Part shown: positions 9,672-57,130 of the stretch, piece by piece | Layout of the letters: every line of letters starts with the position of its first letter | How positions within the stretch are numbered: the stretch's first letter is position 1 | Source: Tubiluchus corallicola | Taxonomy: Eukaryota; Animalia; Priapulida | Assembly: GCA_030141605.1 (NCBI GenBank) | Contig: JAQGDQ010000171.1 | Coordinates: 248,001-312,000, forward strand | Reading direction: 5' to 3' | Length of the DNA stretch: 64,000 nucleotides | Made by a program: the position numbers and the translations under genes | Notes under the pieces: generated by a model | Databases searched by the model: none | What the model was told of the DNA's origin: nothing | The model's input: the letters and a program-made list of their open reading frames with translations, nothing else

Positions 9672-12600
9672 ATGATAATTCGAGAATTTGCGGCAGCATT
9701 GTTCTGCTGCCTGGTAAGTATCTTTACCATACAGAATATTTAATTGCATTGACTAATCGAGTAACTTACTGACAGGCTGCCTGACTGACACTTTAATCAA
9801 CTTACAGAGCAACCGGCTAACTAACAAAAGAAAAAAGTTGTTGCAGCCTTATAATTTTCAAAGAAGAGCTATTTTATAGTCTGTCATTTTATTAAACGAC
9901 CATTCACCTCACTGGCCAACTGACCGACTAACTGACTGACACTGAGCACGCTATAACTATTTTATACTAATTTGAGTGAAATTGAAAAATAAACAAATAT
10001 TAATGTTGATCGAGTTGCTACAAAAAATTGTTTTCAAATCTAAGCACTAACGAGGCAAAATTTTCCAGGTTGCCAAAACGTCGGGATTCTCTTTTGGCTA
10101 CAGTTCAGGATACGGTGGTGGAGGCTACAGCGGAGCTGGGGGTTATGGTGGGGGAGGTAGTCATGGAGGACATAGTGGAGGGTATGGGGGAGGAGGATAT
10201 GGTGCAGGGGGTTATGGGCTGAGCTATTCAGGTGGATATGGGGGTTATTCTGGAGGGCACGGTGGGGGCTATGGAGGACATGGTGGGGGCCATGGGGGTC
10301 ACGGAGGAGGTCACGGAGGCCATGGAGGATATGGCTATCAGCCCTTGTATTACTATGGCTATCTTCATAAGCACACGACTACGACGCATGCACCGTATGT
10401 ATACTTCAGACGTCACACTGTTCCATACGAGGACCTGTACGAGTCAACGTACACCGACCATTACGTGTTTCACACCCCAAGTCCATGCTACGGATATGGG
10501 TGCAAAAAAGGTGACAGTTACGGGTACGGCGGTAGTGGCGGACATCAAGGCGACTCATACGGTTATGGATCCAGCGGTTATGGCGGTCATGGCCGAACTG
10601 GTTATGGTTCTGATGGGTACGGAGGCTACGGTTCGGACTATGGAGGTCATGGCGGGTATGGCAGGACAGATTATCTTGACGGTTACGGTGATACTGGGTA
10701 CAGCAGCGGAGGAAGCAGTTACGAACACAATTCTGTTAACAGAGGATATGGTCAGAACTCGTACGGCCAAAGCAGCGGATACGGCAAAGAATCTCATTCG
10801 TCTAACAGCTACGAATCAAACGAAATAACAGGTACCTAATTTGACCAAAGATTAAATGCACGACATTTTTTAAACAAACGACGCTAAAACTCTAGAGATT
10901 ATTTTGCATTTATCAGTTTACGAGAGTAATGTAGGAATAAGTACTATACTCGCAACCAACTGTGTGATGACCAGCCGTAAATATTTTAAGTTCAGTTAAC
11001 ATTGGCACAAGCATACCTAGTGCTGCTAAGGATCATAGCACGCAATAAACCTGTCACATTGCTGAGATCAAAGATCAAAGTTACAAATTTCAATGTCAGA
11101 GCTGTAATTTCTATAGCAAACAAAAGATGTGTCCTCAACGAGCTTGAAGGACAAATTAAAGGATCACAGCAAGGTACAAGGTTACTAAATTTCGTGTGTG
11201 TCGAAGACAGGTGATAAAAAATAAACTTATTTTTGGTAAAGGGACCGTTACGTGCTATACCCCGATTGGCCTTGTTTTAGCGATATATACAAAAAATACA
11301 CCGGAACTGTGGATTTTTCAGTCAACAGCCCAGAAAAAATTTGTAGATGTCAGATAGCGGTTATGTCAGAACTGGTTATGGTTCTGATTAGTAGGAAAGC
11401 TACGGCCGAATTGGCCACGCTAAAGAGACAGATTATAAATTTAGGGAAACTCTAACAACTAATAATTAGTTGTACACATTAACGTACAATGTGTCAACCA
11501 AAACTCTAAATGTTTTAGATATCAAAACAACATGCGATGGACATTATAAAACATTACGAATTGATCTGACTTTCAAAAGTGGTTTCTACGGTAAGATATT
11601 CGCGAAAGGCTACTACGGAGTGGAGAGATGCTCGGCCCAAGGTGATGGCTCTTATCATCTTAGTTTCACACTTCCTCTGGATGGATGTGGTACACAAGAA
11701 TCAATTGATGTTGATAGGGTAAGCATTTCACAAACATTTAGAATAAGTTAAATTACTAGATCAAAAATCGTGCGTTTTATACCTTTGTGTGTAATGATAA
11801 GTCACCCTTTTCGAATAAAATAATAGTTTTCGGTTATCTCATTTCATACTTACGAGTCTTCTTATGTTCTCTTTTTGTTACTTGAGCATTTAATGCGGGT
11901 ATAAAATGATTCATAATGTCATAGAGAAATACGCTCTCCGTTCGTTGAGCTTCAGTTTCAACGATTACTTGTCAGGAGTACAACGTTTGTTAGTTTGTTG
12001 TACGCTCTTATATACGTAGTGATCTTTATCCTTCAAAAGGCCAGATTTACCATTATGATGTATTTGCCATTAGTTGTTTCATAACTCATAGATTTCCTTC
12101 CAAAAGTCTCTTCAAGTCTTTTTTAAGTTCAACTTCACCAATAAGGCTTTTAAAAAAATTTCAGTCTTCTGGTTATGGTGGTTATAGTAGTGGATACCAG
12201 CATAAGTACACATACAAGAACACGTTAGTTGTAATGGAACACAGTGGATACGGATACGGTGTTCTTGAAGCAAAGGATCGAGCCTATTCTGTCTACTGTA
12301 CCATTGAGGACAAGAATCAGAACCAGTACCAGCAACCTACAACTCAAAGCTACGGGTATTGTATAATGCCTTAGTTTTCTACCGTGTACAGCTGTGCACA
12401 TGTTGCTCAATAACATTGAGACTATAAACAGTAGGAGCATCAATTTTATTAAACCAAACTTTACTCATTTTTATATTTGCCCTTCGGAGTGTAAATTGAA
12501 GAAAATTTTTACCTGCTTTGTGCGAAGTATTACAAATCTTCAAAGAGTAACACATTTAATTATTTTTTGTGTCTTTTAAGTCATTTAGATTGTGTAAAGA

Positions 12601-23088: not shown

Positions 23089-26000
23089 CTACAGTGATGA
23101 CTCATGATAACTTGCTACCTCATTTCCGTTTTCTGATTGGTTAACATTTCTATCTTCTTCTTCTTTTTCATCACATTTGTTTTCGTCTTTGCTTGGTCTT
23201 TTGCAGCAGGTGAAGCAAGGTATGAGACAAAGTAGCACTGCAGCAGACGTCAAAACAGCTCCAGCTACCACATATGACGTCACAAAGTCCTGGGTGAGGT
23301 CATATATCATGCCTTTAAATTCATAAAAATGGTAACCTCAAACGTTAAAATAAGATCATTATGAGTAGATGAGATTGCTGTCTAAAAAATGTGTTTCGGT
23401 TCAATTTAAATATGTTAAATTACTTTGCAAAAACTATTCAGTTGTAGATCTTTCATTAAAATATATGTTTCAAGCCTGATTTTAAGTAAATTTATAACAT
23501 TATTCAGTTGTTTAAAAGTTATGTTTCAATTCCACTTAAATATGTAAAATTACCTTGAAAATGCTATCATTAAATTAAATTTTATTAACTTTCATTAAAT
23601 TATCTGTCTCAAACCTGATTTTAAGTGGAATTAGTAACATTATTCATTCAATCACTTTTTAACAACGTGTAAGTGCAATGTTAAGGTTCAATGATTTTCA
23701 ATAAAAATTCATCTTATTTCATATCATATCATGCATACATGGTAATCTACGTGCTATACTGCAGCTAGATAGCCATTAAGATACCATGACGCATGATATA
23801 CCTGCTACAGGTGGTCCAATCATCATCGACACACCACGACATAAGCATAACAGACCAAAAGCATTTGTTAGCTTAAGCAATCCAATTGCCTCCACTAATA
23901 TTATAGACGTCAGGCAAATAAATGCAGCTGAAAGGCAACAAAATATATAGACACTGCATGCAAGAGTTTGCTTAACTCCAGCTCGTCAGACACCACAAGC
24001 AGACATAGACTGCATCATAGAGGATAGCTTAAATGATTCCAGTCAGAGCCAAAGCACATACTCTATGAACAGGGCACAGCTTTACCTGCCAAGGGAGGTC
24101 CTACCATAGATGTAGCACCTCGAAACAGACAGAGTAGTCCAAAGGCGTTGGTTAATTTCTCCAGACCCATAAGATTAACAAGAATCACAGACGTCAAGCA
24201 AATGAAGGCAGCTGAAATGTTATTAGTTTTTATGGCATATTTTTGCACCTGCTTCTTTTAAATTATAATATTTAGCACGGCCGGCTGTAGGTAGTTTGAC
24301 GCCCCGGGCATAAAGGTTTTTAGCGCCCCCTACCCCTCCTTCGCACGGTCCCTTTCTCCACCGTCTCAAGCATACCACAGAATTGATTTTTTTATATAAT
24401 ATTATAATAAAATATAACAGTACCTGTGTGCTACGCTTACACATGCATTACAGTTCACTAATTAAGTGTCTGTACCTTTCTGCAGCTGGTCTGAATTGAA
24501 TTTGAAATTGAATTTATCACCCCAATGTACGCTCGGGTCTTCGGCAGCAAGCACACTTCTGCAAATTCTGCTACTCTTGGCTACATTTTCCCTCAACTTT
24601 TTCATCAGAAAAATTTTCAAACCCCAATTCCTTTTTTCACGTATCTATCCATTTCACTAGTTTCATCATCTTCACAACTCTGATCTGGTTGTATCTTCAT
24701 CAGAGATATTTTTAAGATAATTTATGTTTTATTTAATTAAAGTGCTGTGCACTTAAGCAGCAATTGCACATACATTATGTTATTACGTATTCTAAACTTT
24801 AAAATTAAAGAGTTACTTCCAGAATTTGGCGTTCCCACAAATTTGGTGCCCTAAGCAACTCGTAAGCAGTTTGTTTATGATAGAACCGGTACTGATCTTT
24901 AGTAACGTAAGCACAGCCCGTTACTGAAATGACTTTATTTCAGGAGTTTTCACTCCAAGGCCATCAGCTGCAGGTCAAAATGCACAGAGAAATGGTGGCA
25001 TCTTTATAGCTCACATACAATCACTTTGAGATTTAAGGGAACTATATTCACTTTTTTCAGTTAAACATACGTAAATAATCAACCAAACTGTTTTGCTATA
25101 TTTTAATCCTTAATTGAGTCTCTTATCGGTTATCTCGTATATTGTTGACTACTTAAAGGGAAGACAAAGTTATTAAGTACGTCAACAAAAAAAAATTCAC
25201 ACAAAGTTATATTACTTAGCAGTACGCTTACCTGTTTGAAAGACTTACGTAATTAGAAAAGAAAATTCTTAACAATGTAAAATATTCACGCCACCTGGTA
25301 AAACGGCACTGCATTGTCATCCCGTTGTGCACAAAGTTGTTCACCAAAAAACATATTATTGATCTTACTGACAATATAAAGCAATTTAAACTTTTTCATA
25401 ATTTGCGAAAAGTGTGCTACGAATGCTCTGACTATTTTTTCAGACTTCGTACAATGTTCGAAACGACTCACTCTCAAAATCCACACAACGAGTCACGGGA
25501 GTCTAAATTTACAAGTTCTAGACACCCGTTGCTGCCCACGTAAGCTCTGTGCGCAATAAAACAGCATGTAAGTGATATAAAATTTCAAGACGAATAAGCC
25601 TTTTCACACTTCCAGCGATTGATGATGATCATGAAAAGGTCAAAGGTTAAGTGTACCAGACAACGCATTTGTGTACACTTGGGCCAGTTTTAACAGCTAG
25701 CTAGAACCTTATTTAGTTCATTTTTATTATTCCAAAGCAAGATCTTGATAAGTAAATCACACTATGCACAGATTAATGTATAATTAAGCAAAGTTCACGT
25801 AAAACAACTGAAGTTACGGCAGACAGCATTGCTTTACCCACATGTCACGTTACGATTGTAGTTAAGACGCGTTGCTGTGGTATACTTAACCTTTGACATA
25901 CGGGAACTACGCGTGCGCACAATGAAACTGTGAAAATGCTTATTTTAAGTGTTATTTGTGAAGATTGAATTCTTGTGCTTTAGCGTTACTCAGTGTAAAT

Positions 26001-28882
26001 ACTCACCAACAGATGATCCAAACACTGCACAATAGACTGCCAATGACAGGTAAGACGTGTACAGAGGTAAAAACAATGTGGACACGCCACTTATTAGCAA
26101 ACTAATATTGTTCACATAAAGAGCATTAACTCCAGGTCTATCACAGATCCAACCGACAATGACACGGCTTACAGTGTTTGTGATTCCAATGATGGACAGC
26201 AAGTAAGCAGCATCAGTTGCAGGAATACCAAGCTCAATAGCCCTTGAGTTGGTGTACATGAAGGGTATGTAAAATCCTATAAAAGCCAGAATGTTGGCGA
26301 TGCAAATTAATAAAAACACCGGATCTTTTAGCAAGGACAAGTCTAACATTTCCTTAAAGACGCTTCTCATTTCAGGTTCACAGCAGCGTGCCATTAAGCC
26401 ACTTTCACTCAAATCAATAACCGTTCCTTCTTCATCAGCCACACCTGGAATAGCCGTAATGCTAGTAATATATTCCATTTCACTTTTTGCTGCCTTGTAC
26501 TCTGGTAAGTTCATTATGCTACCACTAAAAAATATATCTTTCCTGTACATTGGACGTCTGTACTCTTCTTTTATGTCTTTGCCTGCTAGAGGTTTGTAGC
26601 CATTTGGTCGTAGTAGCTGTGAACCTCTAATATGAACGGTGTGCTCACTCTTCACGCGTTGGAGTAATTTATTCTGAGGTAGCTGCAATGCTTCTTTGTC
26701 TATGGCTGTTGCACTGGTACTCATCCTTCTGACTTCTGTATAGTTATCTGGCACGTCACTTTTGCTGTCCAGTTCGTGGTCACTCGAAATTACTATGTCT
26801 GGAATTGCAGGTCGCTCCCGAGCCACAGTTGACTGATATCCTGAGTCTTCTGTTTCGCGAGAAGAATCCGAAGATTTGCACAGCTCCCCTTCAGTTAACT
26901 CATTACCTGGAGTATTATTACAAAGAAAGGTAGCTCTGTTGTCGTCGTGTATAGTAAATGTTCTTACTCTTTCCATTTTCACTTCGTGCATTCTTTGCAA
27001 TAGTGGTTTTTCTGTCACCTTGATTTTCTTCGCTTTCAACGGTCTCATCAGGGCACCGCATACCATCCCGTTCATCACCAAGCCAGCCACGATCAATGTA
27101 GCACCCTTCCAGTCATACGTGGTCAGTAGAAATTTAGAGAAAGGTGCAAAAACAAACGTCCCTATTCCAGATCCACAGACAGCTAAACCTGTAGCGAATG
27201 CTCTTTTTTCCTCAAAATAATACCCGACACTCACGATTGCAGGCAGGTACATAAATCCAAACGATATTCCTAAAAAGACCAAACGAAATTAAATATCTAT
27301 ATTATTTAGTTATAATAATCTACCTCGTAAACGACACGAGTCCTCAGGTGGATTTTTAATCGTTTAAAAGAGGTTTTCTGACCTAAATTACTGTTAATAA
27401 AGCTTATAATCTGATAATAGGAAACAGTATATAGATATAGATTTAGATTTACTTCTCACAAAAAGCGATGCACATTGAATGATACGAAACAAAAATTATA
27501 AGATAGCATCGCAAAAAACAAATTGCTTACACTATAATGCTTCAATGTGTGTTTAAAGAAAATCTTGTAAGCACAATAATGATAGTGAGATAGTTATTTT
27601 GTAATTTCATATATTTTATGCTTCTAATCTTGCAGTTAAAATGTTAGAAACTCAGTAAAACGAAATTAACCTGCCATAACCCCATACGTCAAAATTAAAA
27701 CAGTGACATTCGGCGAAAAGATGCTAAGAATGAATGAGATTCCTGCCATGACGCTGCCAAATATTGTCACTGGTCGACATCCAAATCTGTTCACCAAGGC
27801 ACTGACTACAGGACCTGTGAAGAACCAAAAGTAGTCTGTAGAAGTAACAGCAGCACGTTTGTAGGAACAATTCCCAAGTTTTTGCATTTGCACAATAAGC
27901 ATTTACTGAATTTTGCATAGTTTGATGAAAAACTGCTCTCACTAAGCAGCGATTATGTTGTATTTGATAATTTTTGTAGGCCTCTACTCCCAACACAATC
28001 GTTTTTCATGCAAAATTAATACGAAATGCATTTGCTCACCTTAACCAAAAAAAAATGAAAAAAGCTTTCAGTAATTACAGTGTTTGCACTGTAACAATGT
28101 ACAGTATCAATTGTGTGAAATATGCTAATGCAGAAAATTTCAACTATCCAGACTCAACACTCTGATATATTATGGCCTCAAAGTCATCTCTTATTTTTAA
28201 GGAGAAATTCCAGTTAAAAGATGAAACGACCTTAATTTCTCTTTGGCTGATCGGTTTGCTTTTCCTGGAACTCAGCACAGCAGAAGGTTCTCTTGGGCTG
28301 TAGCAAGCAGGCGATCAATAAAATAGTGTGTACGATCACGCAAGTGTAAACCAGACTAAGCTACTCACTAGGCTAAGTTGGAGTGCCGGAAAACGGTGTG
28401 TTTTTCTTAATTTTATCCAATTAAATCAATTATAAATGTCAAAAGAAATAGCCGAGATTCTCCTTCATAGAACAGTACCTAATTTGTAATCATTTAGTTA
28501 TGTATGTGTTCATACAGTACCAGAAAAGTAATAGGTCTTATATATTTTAAATGGCGTGGTCCTGTGACAAACTTGTGAAACCAGTAAACATTGAAAACCT
28601 GTCAAACGTACCTGCAGTAAGATAACAGCCAGCAAGCAGTGATCCGACCATTGACGTTTTAGCAGCGCTTTCATTGAAGTACTCCTTAAATTCGACCAGC
28701 CAAACGCCATAGCAGTAGGTGATACCATCAACGAGAAAATTTAATATAAAACTTGCGAAGACAATCATCCAACCCCAGCTGCCATCTGGAGGCTGAGGAA
28801 TAAGATACTCCGGATCGAGTCCCTCCAATTCCGGATCAAAGTCGTCATCGCGTGCTGGTCTGTACTCGTCGCGCTGGCGCAT
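23089..28882 (-). CDS. SLC16 / monocarboxylate-transporter family MFS protein (MCT12/14-like invertebrate type, ~675 aa with one of the two alternative exons)
   Basis: Exons 28612-28882, 27671-27814, 26007-27269, [24086-24211 or 23802-23927], 23089-23312; all phase-1 GT-AG junctions. SLC16 motifs [49 protein letters not shown], large central loop with [10 protein letters not shown], and GPPLAG-MIYD. An acceptor at 28903-28904 indicates a further upstream exon. Confidence 0.93.
23400..23650. repeat. Degenerate ~120-bp tandem duplication in the last SLC16 intron
   Basis: TTAAATATGT.AAATTAC ... CTTTCATTAAA ... CCTGATTTTAAGT ... TAACATTATTCA occurs twice (~23400-23508 and ~23526-23649). Confidence 0.7.
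23802..23927 (-). CDS. Duplicated alternative exon (copy B) of the SLC16 gene, encoding the TM10-TM11 region
   Basis: 126 nt, flanked by tttcag| and |gtatat, same phase as exon 24086-24211. Translates to [42 protein letters not shown], 31/42 aa identical to copy A. Not in the ORF track. Confidence 0.85.
24276..24894. mobile_element. hAT-type MITE in an SLC16 intron
   Basis: Ends CACGGCCGG...CCGGTACTG with GCGCCC-type subterminal motifs; 8-bp TSD ATATTTAG (24268-24275) / ATCTTTAG (24895-24902). Confidence 0.7.
25593..25944. mobile_element. MITE family A, copy 2 (in an SLC16 intron)
   Basis: Colinear with 7743-8112 over its full length, same orientation, same TIRs with a few mismatches. Confidence 0.85.
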
Positions 28883-46923: not shown

Positions 46924-47300
46924 GTCGGCTTTTTCGCAAAACTTAATTAATGATATTAGTATTATAATTTACGCCATATTATTCATGGTCATAATTGCAA
47001 CATAATTATTAATATCGGGATAAACGAGTATTTCAAAGTTTTAGAAGCAAGCTTGGCCTGATTTACCTAGGTCCATTTCTTTTCTGGCATATTTAGTTCC
47101 ATAGATCGTAATCGATGGCTTTACGGTCCATTGATTACGGATCATGAAAACTGTGTTTGTAAAAACTGGATCGTAATTTGACCGTAATCCTGCTATAATT
47201 TCGCAGCCGACGGTTAAAACAGGAATCTGGAAAGAACTTGGAAGCATAGTTATCACGTCACTGGGTGTAATTTTCGCTCTTTTCGTTTTGTGTAGAGATA

Positions 47301-47668
47301 GGGTACAGTCTGCAGTCTTAAGTTTAGACTGGGCAAAGTTGGAAAGGGTACAGTCTGTAGTCTTAAGTTTAGACTGGGTACAGACGGAAAAGGTACAGTC
47401 TGCAGTCTTAACTTTAGACTGGGTACAGACGGAAAAGGTACAGTCTGCAGTCTTCAGATGGAATAGGTACATCTGCAGTCGTAAATTTGGACTGGGCACA
47501 GATGGAAAGTGTACAGTCTGTAGTCTTAAGTTTAGACTGGGTACAGACGGAAAAGGTACAGTCTGCAGTCTTAAGTTTAATCTGGATACAGATGGAAAGT
47601 GTACAGTCTACAGTCCTAAGTTTAGACAGGGTACCAATGGAAAAGGTACAGTTTGAAGTCTTAAGTTT
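47301..47668. repeat. 45-bp minisatellite (~8 units) overlapping the DEG/ENaC stop codon
   Basis: Unit GGTACAGTCTGCAGTCTTAAGTTTAGACTGGGTACAGACGGAAAA, seen as 15-aa repeats in the spurious ORFs. Confidence 0.9.
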
Positions 47669-49737
47669 CCTGTAACGGTGGTGAACGCAAGAACTCCATT
47701 TCTGAGGCGCCATATTTGTCATTATTTTTCTCTCCTTGATTCATCACTTTCTTGTTTCTGGCCCGCCGTAATCCCTGCAGCAAAAGCATAACTACATCTG
47801 CGAGAAATTCAATAATCTCGTAAATTGCCAAAACAGACATGCCAATATACAGTCCCAGCAGGCCACCAATGTCACCTGCCAGATCTGCTTCCTTGTAGGT
47901 GATTTCCTCATGGACTTCCTCTACCATTGATGTCTCAAACATGACATGGAGCCAAGCCAGTTCGTTTACGCCATCCACAAGTGACTTTAGAGAATAGTTG
48001 TTTTGTTTTTCATCCGTCCATGCACTGTAGCGCATCAAGTACCCGGTTATATTTGTGGTATTGTGGTACTCTCTGACAAAATTTTTCCATTTCCTTGTTC
48101 GATTATGGTCTATCGTGTGACTGGACTCCCACGAAGTATGATACCTAAAAGCATTTTACAGAATAGATTTATAAGTTAATTTGTGAGTTAATTTGTGAGG
48201 TTCAATTTAACGGGATTTGCAAAAATTGCTAATGTCGACGTTAAATTAATATCAATGGTTTTTTTTCATGTAAGTACATGTATCATGCAATGTAGCAGTA
48301 TCAATTTTTGCAGTCAATTAAATTTAAAGCCTGTATTTTCAAGTAGTTCAGAGCCTGATTATACATTCTATATATAGAAGAAGTCTGACTACCTTATTTA
48401 GCTCGCAATTTTATGTTATAATACAGAATATGAAGGAAGTACATAAAATAAATAGATAGCTGAACGAAGAAATAAATAAACACCTAAAATAACAGATAAG
48501 CAAATAAACAAACAAGCAATTCCAATGCGGAATAACTTCGCGTTATGGTGCGTCTTGAATGACCAAACGTGAATGCAACTAAACCTTTACCTAGTTTGAT
48601 TACATGGTGCAGGACAGTTACACTCATCTTCTTCAATTTCAATCATCATAAAACAATCATCATGATCCGATCCAAGTAGAGTTTCACACATTGGAGGTTG
48701 ATCATCGATTGTCCAACCAGCCTCTTGTAACAGTTTGTCTGTCAGTGGGATGCTGTTGCTGCTGCAGTTACATTTCTGAATCAACTTTTTTTGTTCGCAA
48801 GTCTCCCTGCAAGTCTCAGTCCCGTATTTGGTGCCAAACGTTTCCTTAAACACATCTCTAAGTTGGCCTTTGTTCGCTTCTTCTTCTTCTATACAATGAT
48901 TTTTCGCACGCACTTTGTACACGTCTGTTCGCTGTATTTTTGCAGTGTTCAAGGTTCCAGCACGCACGAAGAATGGCTTGACACCAACATAACTGTAGCC
49001 AGGTGGAGTAATGATGACATTGAATCCTGGCTGAGGAGTATTTAATGGCATGTATTCTTCCAGGCTTGCATTCAATAAAAAAGTAAAACCGATCTTTGCC
49101 ATGGAGCGGTTCACTCTCATTCCCGCCCGTCGTGCCCCATCTGGAGTCCTTCTCGAAGGATTGAAGGTAAAACAGTTACCCTTATCTAGCTGTATGTTAG
49201 TCGTCTCAAAATGTTCAGCTAATTCACAACCTCTTAATTCTGATTTCTGTTGAGGCAACTTACACAACAATATAGTATCTTCTAACTGGTGACCGATCCT
49301 TAATCGCTGAGTTTGGTTCAATTTAGCTGCAAATTCTGAATTGAAGGCTTCATAGTTAACTAATCCCAAGCGGTAAAATCGTCAGATACATTATAAAATT
49401 CCGGCATAAATTTTTTGTACTCGCTAAAGCGCATAGAATTTTTGTTGCAAATGGTCACAGATGGTGCAGCAATTGTTTGGCTACTTAGTCGAAATCTAGC
49501 AGCAGTCTTTACAGGACGTGAGAGATACTTTTTTAACTGTATTCCACTCTGAACGCAGAACAATGATGTAGCCGCTCCTATGAGAGCAATCCAAATGCAT
49601 TTTCTCACCAAACTTTTTGAACGTTTTATATTACCTATGCCATGAGTAGCTGTATTGTCTGCTAGTGTAGCTGCTAATGTCTTGATGGACGATTCTTCTC
49701 CACTTTCAATCTCAGCATTTTCGTAATTTTCTTCCAT
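47661..49737 (-). pseudogene. DEG/ENaC (amiloride-sensitive sodium channel family) gene with one frameshift; pseudogene, null allele or assembly indel
   Basis: Exon 48591-49737 plus exon 47661-48144 (GT-AG, phase 2). Motifs: pre-TM1 NTATHG, TM1 KCIWIALI, PSVTICNKN, GHQLEDTILLC, GNCFTFN, Cys-rich thumb ending CNCPAPC, and TM2 LAGDIGGLLGLYIGMSVLAIYEIIE. The frame breaks between ORF 49360-49737 and ORF 48587-49369; adding one base restores a 543-aa protein. Confidence 0.8.
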
Positions 49738-53001: not shown

Positions 53002-54672
53002 TCAGACAATCTCATCTATATTGCCTGCCATGATGTCCTGATAAACATCAATGAACATATAATCAGATAATGATTCGTAGCCACTAACAGCTTCCAGCAT
53101 TTGCTGTAACTGTTGGCGCAGTTGCTGAAAACTTGGTCTGTCATCGGGATTTTCACGCCAACAAACTTCAATCAGTTCATACACCTCTTCTGAGCACCCC
53201 GGAGGACACTCCATACGGTATCCATTTCTGATTGCTTCAATGACCTCAACAGCTGTTTTGTGTTCCGGGTAGGGCGTGACCCCAAGAGTTACGATCTCCC
53301 AGAAGAGTACCCCAAATGACCAGACATCTGATTCTATGGAATATTTGTTAAACTGCAAAGATTCGGGTGCCATCCAACGAACTGGCAAACGCTTTTGTAA
53401 CCTCTTCACATTAGACCGGTACTTGACAACGTCGTCTTCTCTTCCAAATTTACTAATCTTACACTTAAGGTCCGCAGAGACAAGAATACTCCTTGCTGCC
53501 AAATCGCGACACAGGCATTTATGCAGGGCTAGATGTTCAAGCCCTGACACAATGTCGGAAGCAAATGACACTGCCATTCTAACAGTCAAGTGAGCAAGAT
53601 TTGAATACTGGTCCGTATTCCCTGCTTCTTTCAAAAGAAAAGATTTTAAATCTCCGTTCTCCATGTAATCTTTAATCACTACTGTACCTTTTTCTGCATC
53701 ATTTATTTTTGTGATAAAACCTAATAAATTTTCATGTGCAGGAATGTCTTTTAAGATCTCCAATTCCTTTTCAAGATACGAAGTAATAAAATGATTGCGC
53801 TTTTCCTTTATTGTGTATTTAGCTGTGACTATTTGCTGCTCTCTAATTCTTTCTGGCTCAGTATTGTGCAAGATAGCTTTGTACACGTGATGATACGTGC
53901 CTTCTCCAAGTTTTTCTAGGTAACTTATTTTGTTTTTGTTCACGCATTCATCCGGTCGAGGAGGTAGTGCAGGAACATCGGATACCCGTGGCGGTAGTGG
54001 TGTAACATAAGGAAGGTCGTACACAACTTCTGTTCTCTGTTCTTGGTTGATGGCTACCACACCAGCCATTCTTCCAGGTTCAGTAGCTGATGCAGGCGTG
54101 ATTGTCACTTTGTTGTAGTCTGGTGTTCCGCAGCATACTAACCTACAACATAATGCAGCTGATACAATTGAGGCAATAAGTTCCAGTATACCCAAAATAG
54201 GATATATTATGTGAACACGGCGTGCAATGTTTTCTTCCCAGCAATCTGTTTCGTAACAGCTGGAATGTAATGCTATGATAGAACCTCCAACTATCATTAT
54301 GCAACTTGTTATTGCAGAAAGGATGCACAGTACCATGAAACTGATCCAGATGGGAAGTACGGGCTTTTTCTTTCCTATACATCCCACGATTCCTGTTACT
54401 GTGAACATGATCCCTGCCCATATGCCAATTAGGGCACCATTATAAGAAACCACTATAGAAAGTACAATAACTTCCAGAAGAAGGGCAATTGAACCAAGAA
54501 CCAATTGGACTACTGCTGCTGCAAATGCCACTTTCTTGGTTGTTATATTTCCTGCTGTACGTCTCTCTTGCTCTTGCTGCTGTGTGAATGTCATATTTTG
54601 TACAGACACTTGTTCTGGTACATAATTCAGCGTGTTGCCTATTTTTGCTGGAACCATCGCCATAGCTGGCAT
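53002..54672 (-). CDS. MS4A/CD20-like tetraspan fused to a tyrosine-kinase-fold pseudokinase (556 aa, single coding exon)
   Basis: aa ~46-181: four hydrophobic segments with MS4A signatures ([25 protein letters not shown], extracellular C-x4-[16 protein letters not shown]). aa ~249-527: TK fold ([65 protein letters not shown]). The ORF is uninterrupted. Confidence 0.9.
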
Positions 54673-57130
54673 GTAATTTCAACAAACTGAATTTCCTCCT
54701 AGATTCTAAACATAAAACTTTGTGAAGAGTGAATATCGAGTGACACTGCAACAAAACAAGAAAAATATCATTTATCTAATAACAAACCGGTTCATTTTCT
54801 CTACTGCCAGAATTTTCGGCCAGACGCATGTGCTATGTACGTACTTCACACTCGTACCCTTAAGCTTCCGTAAAGTGACAGTTTAGCAGCTTTAGCTTCG
54901 TCTTTCAAGTAAACGTTTTTCATATTAAAATAAGCCATAGCGAACCCTTAAATGGGCGCAGTACAGTTTTTAGTTTTTAAGAAAGACACGTATTGCCCAT
55001 AATTGATCATTACTTTCTAAACCAATTAAAATAAAAGACGCAACTTTATCTATCCTAGTCGACATGGAGTCCTGTATTTCATCTTATCACAGAGCAATAT
55101 CGCGTCATTTGGTAACACCAATAACTGCGCATATTAGTTGCAGATACTTTTAAAATTAAAAACTCATTTTTGTGCATTATGACATAAACATTTATCACGT
55201 TGTCACCCAATCACTAGTAGATTAAACTTACAGCAACGCACTTTCCTTGTAGTACACATTCGTGTCCGCCAGTTCTACCTATTATATTTCGCAGAACATA
55301 CGTCCAAGCATTACCGTACGAACGATCGCAGACTCGTCATGTGTTTAGTTATCTCGCTATGGTTCACACAATGCCGGCTTTTCTTACGCTTAAGTTGCTA
55401 CTTCTTGGAAAATTCCACTTCGGACTCAGTCTAGCGTGTAGAACATAAATAACTGCTGGCACAGATGTATTAGTTGGCGCAGCTGCCCTAAGGCACACGT
55501 TTCTGAGGACGTATCTGCACTGTGCCACGGTGCCTACAACCGTATAATTACATGATTTTTTCGATATTTTGTGAAGCTCACAGTCTCACTTATGTATGTT
55601 ACAATGCATTATAGTAACACGGAACATTTGCGAACGTATTAATTTTAAGCTGGTATAACGAAGTATCTCATTTAGGCCACCAACTCACATATAATCTAAT
55701 CTGCCTCAGTCTCGCCAAGTGCTAAGGCGCTAAGGCATAATTTCATTAAAGCTGTAACTGACAGAAGTGTAAAATTGATGATTGTTGAATATCGAAAAGC
55801 GCTGCTTAATATGCTTGGCATACCATATAACTCGCATTGTACAATGACGATAACGATTGCTGAAACTTCCTCCTTTGAATTTTTAATACCTAAGAGAAGT
55901 GTAAATCGGTCAAGAAGTACTGTCTTAAAAACACTGTCACTTTTAAACATGAATTCTACTTGTACAACCCTAAGAGTGAATAAGATATTTATTGTACAAA
56001 ATATTTCCAATTTTAATAACACTGTTTCTAATCATAATATATTTGCTTATGAGCTGTACTGGCTTACTGAAGGGGAAAACCACCTACCTGGCTTCTTGTA
56101 TGATGAAATTCGTCAGATTTTGTATCATATGATAACTAACTAATGTAAATATTCTTGTAAATTATTACTAACAAATATTGATGAATTGTAATATGTAATA
56201 AGTGCGAAATAAATCTTATACATATAATAAATAAAAAAAATGAATTGTTAATGTGTGCCTGATCACATCTTCATACTAACTATAGGGCATTTCTACTCTA
56301 CAGTACGACTGCTCGACGATATTACTTCAGAAATCGAGAGGTACAAAGGGTTGTAGACCACATCTGTGGTTGTAGACTTTTTTGCTCAGCAGAATAAAGC
56401 TGCCGTGCTTTTTGAAAGAAACTGTAACTCTCAACAATTGCAGTTACAAGTCGTGTCGTATTTACTTGTTATTTTATTATTATTTATTAGGCACAAAAGT
56501 ATACATTAAGATTAGTAGACAATAAGATTGTATAACTACGAGTCATACGAAGGTTACAGCCATACGACTGTGTGGCCATAGATGACGCAAGGAACTAAAT
56601 TTTGGAACAGGTCACTGCCTGTTAATCTATACACGTACCCCATAGACAAGAAACCAGTAGTAGCAATTCAAAATGTTTCCTATAGTCAGAGTAATACTCA
56701 TTAATGAAAGTACGAGTACATCAATTTTAAATTCTGAACAGCAGATACAGAGATTCTGTTTATTTTACCAACTGGGGCTCTTTTCTCGTATGTATTGTAA
56801 TGATTTCTTTTTCAGCGCCAAATTTTCAGCTTCAAAGATGGTTTTCCTACACTTAAGAAGGGACCATTTCAACCTTTGTAGTTTTCAATACAAAATTGGA
56901 CTCGGGCACTTCAGTACCAGCGCTATTAAATTAATGATGTACATTTTAAACATCGTTGAAGAGCAGTAGCTAACATTTTACACACTGATTTGACGTGAAC
57001 AAAAAAGCAAAAATACTAATTAATGGGTTCAGTAGACACATTTAATAAATAAATTCTGTTAACAAATTTAAGTCACTTTAAGTCACTCATTAGGACAAAA
57101 TGATTTGCTCAGTTAAAGTTTTGTAATATC

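Follow-up and report, generated by a model that had tools for sequence, protein, structure and literature searches.

The 64-kb window analyzed in this study, a stretch of 64,000 nucleotides from the priapulid Tubiluchus corallicola, encodes a protein of 556 aa in which a CD20-like four-helix membrane domain is followed, in a single chain, by a predicted tyrosine pseudokinase (Table 1), and the same layout recurs in two proteins of Priapulus caudatus. Together, these three full-length proteins represent a conserved receptor tyrosine pseudokinase variant with four membrane passes, which is apparently undescribed. The receptor tyrosine kinases of animals, and their pseudokinase relatives, are described as crossing the membrane once; a conserved member with four passes is a new layout for this signaling class. 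The protein also builds in a connection that mammals are known to make only in trans, where FcERI-beta acts with Lyn and MS4A4A with KIT, and thus provides a one-chain system for asking what CD20-like tetraspans do in tyrosine-kinase signaling, as well as what invertebrate CD20-like proteins do at all. The family currently comprises three full-length members, all from non-model organisms, so that motifs termed invariant below are invariant in three sequences, and its function is read from sequence.

Full-text searches of the published literature, with most subscription journals outside their scope, found no description of a CD20-like tetraspan combined with a kinase. A paper on the holozoan tyrosine kinome contains neither CD20, MS4A, nor Priapul- in its main text, nor the searched terms in one supplement, and its other supplements may list such proteins (PMC8662651); in the accessible part of a survey of membrane proteomes, the CD20-like family appears only as one that expanded in animals (PMC5620054). 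The suggestion of an earlier note on this DNA that the architecture is undescribed thus stands for the literature searched but not for the databases, as both Priapulus proteins are already in RefSeq as predictions, automatically and wrongly named 'proto-oncogene tyrosine-protein kinase receptor Ret-like'. The analysis presented here corrects these two public annotations.

Table 1. Parts of the tetraspan-kinase gene, with positions in the window
Feature	Position	Strand	Basis
Probable 5' UTR portion of the exon that carries the coding sequence	54673..54747	-	Inferred from sequence
Coding sequence in one exon (556 aa), comprising CD20-like tetraspan, linker, predicted tyrosine pseudokinase, and tail	53002..54672	-	ORF, Pfam, alignment, AlphaFold
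Cytoplasmic N-terminal tail, aa 1-49, basic residues ahead of TM1, without signal peptide	54526..54672	-	Hydropathy, AlphaFold, charge pattern
CD20-like four-helix membrane domain, aa 50-181	54130..54525	-	PF04103 21.4-24.8 bits (under cut-off); profile vs human CD20; hydropathy; AlphaFold
Second outer loop with C-x4-C, aa 136-152	54217..54267	-	Comparison of three family members
Cys cluster CCRLVCC, inner end of TM4	54130..54150	-	Alignment of three
Disordered cytoplasmic linker, aa 182-247	53932..54129	-	pLDDT < 50 at aa 184-237
Tyrosine motif YDLPY, aa 218-222	54007..54021	-	Alignment of three
Proline motif PALPPR, aa 234-239	53956..53973	-	Alignment of three
FGFR/Ret/Tie-type tyrosine kinase fold, predicted pseudokinase, aa 248-527	53092..53931	-	Pfam, tree, fold search
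Beta-3 Lys285	53818..53820	-	Alignment
Catalytic loop CRDLAARS	53488..53511	-	Alignment
KFG replacing DFG	53443..53451	-	Alignment
C-terminal tail with Tyr532, aa 528-556	53005..53091	-	Alignment, register with Tie1 and Cad96Ca

The membrane and kinase halves

The earlier note had proposed a Pfam scan for CD20 and PK_Tyr_Ser-Thr, and both domains were returned. CD20 (PF04103) is placed at aa 53-141 with an E value of 2.8e-4, scoring 21.4 bits for the whole protein and 24.8 bits for the domain alone against a curated cut-off of 27.9. The two Priapulus homologues score 48.6 bits, over the cut-off, and 27.7 bits, just under it, and CD20 is the best membrane-domain family in Pfam for all three proteins; a PHO4 match was rejected at 18.3 bits against a cut-off of 33.7. 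When a profile of the three TM domains was compared with PDB sequences, eight were returned at E up to 10, comprising CD20 in the top four places (human CD20 best, E 3.9e-4, with the likeness extending over TM1-TM3), two claudins (claudin-18 at E 0.0095, the other at 0.29), and two FcERI-beta chains (E 0.54 and 3.2). The T. corallicola TM domain alone matched no PDB sequence. In the ESM Atlas, the TM part led to CD20-family clusters at 0.87-0.89, which serves as a lead only, and the whole protein led to kinases only. These data support the assignment of the membrane half to the wide CD20-like family, below the Pfam cut-off in the T. corallicola copy, and stop short of MS4A proper.

The name MS4A, used in the earlier note, is better replaced by CD20-like (PF04103), because the domain falls under the Pfam cut-off and because the MS4A family study, in the part available, concluded that MS4A genes are absent from invertebrates and described them only in jawed vertebrates (PMC2826416). 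The protein shares with MS4A proteins (CD20/MS4A1, FcERI-beta/MS4A2, and MS4A4A) and the PF04103 family its four TMs, the inside location of both ends, and tyrosine motifs after TM4. It differs in that a strict MS4A protein is a stand-alone tetraspan, typically of 200-300 aa and without an enzyme domain, whereas this one has 556 aa and a kinase fold; the long MS4A proteins covered in that study owe their length to tandem repeats or extended tails (PMC2826416), and none is described with a kinase domain.

The predicted topology of the membrane half is consistent across methods. Hydropathy identifies four hydrophobic segments (aa 57-75, 81-99, 110-128, and 158-176), and AlphaFold, run on an alignment of 21 sequences, predicts four helices with a pLDDT of 75-89 per block, a disordered linker at aa 184-237, and a kinase fold, at a mean pLDDT of 73; this model was used in place of one from two sequences only, for which pLDDT was 38. 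The TM bundle was folded only within the whole protein, and fold searches of the whole model gave match lists filled by the kinase domain. A homodimer prediction for the TM domain gave no verdict, at a score of 0.00. All three members have clusters of basic residues ahead of TM1 and between TM2 and TM3, a positive-inside pattern that fits a cytoplasmic location of both ends and hence of the kinase. Four predicted TMs with both termini inside, as the earlier note had it, are therefore what hydropathy, AlphaFold, and charge all indicate, and the motifs it listed (QLVLG, IWAG..F..G, ILSAI, CYETDC, LE.IAS, and CCRLVCC) can all be found in the translation. The C-x4-C that it pointed out in the second outer loop is present in the T. 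corallicola protein but is not shared by the Priapulus members, one of which has two Cys far apart in this loop and the other none, and it was rejected as a family disulfide motif. The CC..CCG after TM4 is invariant in all three, and the CCRLVCC cluster is probably palmitoylated.

The kinase half was recognized by Pfam as PK_Tyr_Ser-Thr (PF07714) at aa 250-522 with an E value of 3.6e-68, and the corresponding part of the AlphaFold model superimposes on FGFR1 with a Z score of 31.4 and an rmsd of 2.7 over 284 aligned residues; a viral fold library returned kinases only. In all three proteins, the Mg-binding Asn of the catalytic loop is replaced by Ser and the DFG Asp is lost, giving KFG in T. 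corallicola and NFG in both Priapulus copies. The catalytic (HRD) Asp is kept in all three and the beta-3 Lys in two, as Lys285 in T. corallicola and in one Priapulus copy, with Arg in the other. Glu303 is retained in the T. corallicola copy, which is also the only one with a Gly loop (GEGTYH) near consensus, the loop being degraded in both Priapulus copies; the activation-loop tyrosine, Y418, is invariant. Catalysis requires cations, which are bound by the Asn of the catalytic loop and the Asp of DFG, and pseudokinases are defined at the sequence level by the lack of at least one of the beta-3 Lys, HRD Asp, and DFG Asp (PMC4718504). With both cation-binding residues lost, the domain is a pseudokinase by sequence, and the signature that the earlier note reported is thus upheld in every member. 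The domain belongs to the tyrosine-kinase group by Pfam, by its FGFR1 fold, and by the tree, while the protein departs from a receptor tyrosine kinase in having four TMs, no signal peptide, and no ectodomain in place of an ectodomain and single TM, and in lacking the intact set of VAIK Lys, HRD Asp, Asn, and DFG Asp.

Conservation is uneven along this domain. When T. corallicola is compared with Priapulus, the C-lobe is 50-54% identical and the ATP-binding N-lobe only 22-23%, but the two Priapulus copies keep 62% identity with each other in the N-lobe, unlike what free decay would leave. Outside the fold, the linker and tail carry short conserved motifs. The PY of YDLPY is invariant and its first tyrosine, Tyr218, is present in two of the three proteins, with Cys in the third; the proline motif conforms to P.LP.R in each. 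We take YDLPY to be a candidate SH2 docking site and PALPPR a candidate SH3 site. The GY of the C-terminal tail is likewise invariant; its Tyr532 lines up with the tyrosine in the tails of Tie1 and Cad96Ca, and residue 532 of the model aligns to FGFR1 764, within two positions of FGFR1 residue 766.

Family members and kinase ancestry

The first Priapulus homologue, XP_014662088.1, aligns with 33% identity over 99% of the length, is the only such match among the 120 matches listed, and carries both the CD20 and the kinase domain in Pfam. The second, XP_014667023.1, is encoded on a different scaffold and was recovered among the best 150 of 95,236 matches of an exhaustive profile search. Both have the same order of parts as the T. 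corallicola protein, four TMs, CC..CCG, the PY and P.LP.R motifs of the linker, the Asn-to-Ser change, the loss of the DFG Asp, and the tail GY; they differ from it in having NFG rather than KFG, and one has a longer second outer loop. Identity to the T. corallicola protein is 41-43% in the kinase and 27-35% in the TM domain, whereas the kinases of the Priapulus pair are 67% identical to each other, which indicates a deep split. Neither the cadherin-like ectodomain nor the single TM of Ret was found in any of the three proteins by Pfam and TM analysis, and the T. corallicola kinase does not group with an amphioxus protein named RET (P0205) in a tree that has an unresolved backbone and contains no vertebrate Ret.

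Four TMs ahead of a kinase were found in 3 of the 276 collected proteins, namely the T. corallicola protein and the Priapulus pair. The TM-domain profile had no further match among 348 proteins, and a metagenome scan gave 64 loci that are all kinase-only, none of which matches the TM profile. A word-based search with aa 1-245 found no match among 2184 candidates and missed the known homologue too, and two match lists lack XP_014667023.1, itself a family member. Such searches do miss true members; a fusion with another kinase could also rank below the best 150 of the 95,236 profile-search matches. One ENA record of 1119 aa (P0138) has three stretches that resemble tyrosine kinases, with about seven predicted TM segments after them, and multi-pass kinases of other layouts are therefore present in databases.

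Kinase relationships were assessed in quick trees with SH-aLRT support, built from the 86 or 36 domains that remained of 313 after filtering by redundancy and score. The three tetraspan-kinases form a clade (support 95-97), and a Logan record of 897 aa, P0003, is sister to this clade in three trees (96-97); both groupings hold at 97 when the catalytic-motif columns are removed. P0003, a receptor with Ig domains and one membrane pass, shows the same two changes (Asn to Ser, DFG to NFG) and looks from its sequence like an undescribed receptor pseudokinase itself. Its juxtamembrane IYEPY resembles the YEEPY and YDLPY of the tetraspan-kinases, and an insertion of one residue after TPY is common to them, P0003, and two Lingula kinases. 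Canonical kinases of Lingula come next in the trees, at the weak support of 72-85. More widely, the family shares its kinase fold and the signature PVRWMAPE with FGFR/Ret/Tie/Cad96Ca-type receptor kinases of marine invertebrates; unlike the tetraspan-kinases, these have a single TM, an ectodomain where complete, and mostly canonical motifs (HRDLAARN and DFG). Four receptor kinases outside the tetraspan-kinase clade, P0018, P0052, and P0111 of Ptychodera flava and P0157 of Lingula anatina, also have NFG for DFG, and loss of the DFG motif seems to be recurrent in marine-invertebrate receptor kinase expansions.

The grouping of the kinase with an Ig-domain pseudokinase that bears the same two changes suggests that the tetraspan replaced an ectodomain. 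The family may have originated from a receptor kinase of the single-pass, Ig-domain type, already without its Mg site, in which a CD20-like tetraspan took the place of the ectodomain and the membrane helix, and the simplest history would be that the inner half of such a dead receptor, docking motif included, was joined to the tetraspan. The deeper branches needed to orient this account are weak (SH-aLRT 72-85).

Candidate mechanisms

Receptor tyrosine pseudokinases such as HER3, PTK7, ROR1/2, RYK, EphB6, EphA10, STYK1, and FLOR-1 offer the nearest functional comparison, as they likewise combine a membrane-anchored tyrosine kinase fold without catalytic residues and tyrosines that could be phosphorylated in trans. 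All are described as single-pass and nearly all as having an ectodomain, in the text available (PMC13259870), in contrast to the four passes and short outer loops found here, and the T. corallicola protein is set apart from them in keeping the HRD Asp while losing both cation ligands. Receptor pseudokinases are reported to be trans-phosphorylated and thereby to dock SH2 proteins (PMC13259870). The nematode pseudokinase FLOR-1, which has the same Asn-to-Ser change, acts with the active OLD-1 and regulates the membrane levels of OLD-1 (PMC10523662). For the tetraspan side, the C-tail tyrosines of FcERI-beta are reported to dock Lyn, and the chain to raise receptor surface expression (PMC3353146), while MS4A4A is reported to direct the trafficking of the KIT kinase (PMC11663944).

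In the reading that we favor, which we regard as about as likely as not, the protein is a catalytically dead co-receptor whose tyrosines in the linker and tail are phosphorylated in trans by an active kinase. The tetraspan, with probable palmitoylation of its Cys cluster, would position the protein beside a partner receptor, and the C-lobe of the pseudokinase would bind or allosterically control an active tyrosine kinase. That kinase would phosphorylate Tyr218/Tyr222 and Tyr532, and the phosphorylated residues, together with the PxLPxR motif, would recruit SH2 and SH3 adaptors. This reading draws on the loss of both Mg ligands, on the C-lobe being better conserved than the ATP-binding N-lobe between T. 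corallicola and Priapulus, and on the invariant PY, P.LP.R, and tail GY; the retained catalytic Asp and the well-conserved N-lobe of the Priapulus pair speak against it. The data favor no immune, sensory, or developmental role over the others, the immune or chemosensory one suggested in the earlier note included. A wider and rather doubtful proposal is that these proteins belong to a family of receptor pseudokinases that is old within animals and crosses the membrane four times, the CD20-like tetraspan detecting a ligand or partner and exerting direct control over the fused kinase fold; such a family would unite in one chain the coupling of tetraspan and kinase for which vertebrates use separate proteins, and would be one case of a repeated recruitment of CD20-like tetraspans as platforms for signaling domains.

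It is unlikely that the tetraspan is itself the sensor, as a small-molecule chemoreceptor or a regulator of ion flux, with the pseudokinase as a built-in output or gate that changes shape on ligand binding. Mammalian MS4As are reported to respond to chemical ligands and to take part in Ca2+ entry (PMC11663944), and the presence of more than one copy per genome is in keeping with receptor repertoires. The second outer loop also differs strongly among members, at 17, 61, and 22 residues, but this variation could equally reflect absent constraint, and the outer loops of the T. corallicola protein, at 4 and 17 aa, are tiny.

Less probable again is an atypical kinase of the CASK kind, cation-independent or weakly active, in which the Lys of KFG replaces Mg2+. 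The retention of the catalytic Asp in all three proteins, and of Lys285 and Glu303 in the T. corallicola copy, could allow low or cation-independent activity, and the near-consensus Gly loop of this copy and the invariant Y418 agree with it; there is precedent in CASK, which is active without cations, and in STRAD-alpha, where basic residues substitute for the cation in ATP binding (PMC4718504). The KFG Lys is not conserved, however, being Asn in both Priapulus copies, which also have the degraded Gly loop and, in one of them, Arg at the beta-3 Lys. Equally improbable is a role as decoy or trafficking chaperone, in which the protein would relay no signal and would instead determine how much of an active receptor kinase reaches the surface, or damp that kinase. 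The control of OLD-1 membrane levels by FLOR-1 (PMC10523662), the effect of FcERI-beta on receptor surface expression (PMC3353146), and the routing of KIT by MS4A4A (PMC11663944) all provide models for such a role, which is compatible with the dead co-receptor reading rather than exclusive of it, but the conserved tyrosine and proline motifs point to adaptor recruitment.

Gene integrity and neighboring features

The uninterrupted ORF of the earlier note was confirmed as a single stop-free frame of 556 codons on the minus strand, in a window without any N. An in-frame stop lies two codons 5' of the ATG, and the alignment with XP_014662088.1 begins within the first residues of the protein. At 54747-54746, which is 73 bases 5' of the ORF, a pyrimidine-rich AG resembles a splice acceptor. 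The coding sequence is therefore likely to lie wholly within a single exon, with an intron in the 5' UTR ahead of it. Rfam had no match in the 64-kb window, and there are no notable repeats at the ends of the gene. About 1.1 kb upstream, at 55750-56200, is a high-copy repeat, where each of the four runs shows numerous contigs and loose ends.

A chimeric assembly, or a retro-copy that is not expressed, is a highly improbable source of this ORF, as the same fusion occurs in two proteins of an independently assembled species, Priapulus caudatus. The lack of an intron in the coding sequence would suit such an explanation, and so would the fact that no single contig covers the whole ORF, but one X2 contig bridges the TM4/TM domain to the linker (54001-54760) and an overlapping one bridges the linker to the kinase (53756-54025), crossing the junction at about 53930-54130 where the earlier note had called for a check of misassembly; run X2 is possibly the source sample, and its support is accordingly not independent. 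A one-base insertion at 53632 in one X1 contig (depth 8.3) is missing in X2 at depth 176. The frame break near 49360-49381 in the adjoining DEG/ENaC gene indicates that the assembly or region can contain broken genes. Set against this are the excess of differences at third codon positions and the second copy described below, and the in-frame fusion that the earlier note claimed is borne out by the stop-free ORF and by the Priapulus proteins.

Paralogues in T. corallicola were assessed only through contigs of the sequencing runs. A second, diverged copy is present in runs X2 and X3, from two studies, at 80% likeness; one of its contigs links the linker and TM region over 193 letters, against 178 in the window, an in-frame difference of 15 bases seen in both studies, and another (X2/X3) links the kinase and linker. 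Several different X2 contigs also cover the kinase C-lobe (53100-53350, five with another letter at 53215) and the YDLPY region of the linker (53950-54110), a hint of more than two related copies. Summed contig depth was rejected as a measure of copy number.

Run X5, from a third study, contains pieces 84-90% identical along both the tetraspan and kinase halves. In one X5 contig, 23 of the 34 listed differences, out of 58 in total, fall at third codon positions (p 4.5e-5), and dN/dS is about 0.09 over 66 codons of the kinase C-lobe, a value that uses the same 34 of 58 differences; of the check on both halves suggested by the earlier note, this is the kinase part. The loose end of this contig resembles that of the paralogue, and the contig may therefore be the paralogue's counterpart. 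In the TM half, most listed indels occur in compensating sets, with one X5 deletion (depth 4.1) lacking a listed partner.

The DEG/ENaC gene (amiloride-sensitive channel, PF00858) lies at 47661-49737, 3.3 kb downstream of the tetraspan-kinase gene and on the same strand. It apparently has one intron (about 48146-48590), and its frame break reflects either a broken copy or an assembly indel. A degenerate tandem repeat with a unit of about 39 bases follows directly after its stop codon, at 47177-47656. Farther along the window, an MFS transporter gene (PF07690) at 25990-28882 on the minus strand has a 420-codon open stretch with a long inner loop and is presumably of the monocarboxylate-transporter type. 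On the plus strand at 10051-10839, an open frame of 262 codons, rich in Gly, Tyr, and His and with GGY and GGHG repeats, resembles what we take to be cuticle or matrix structural proteins.
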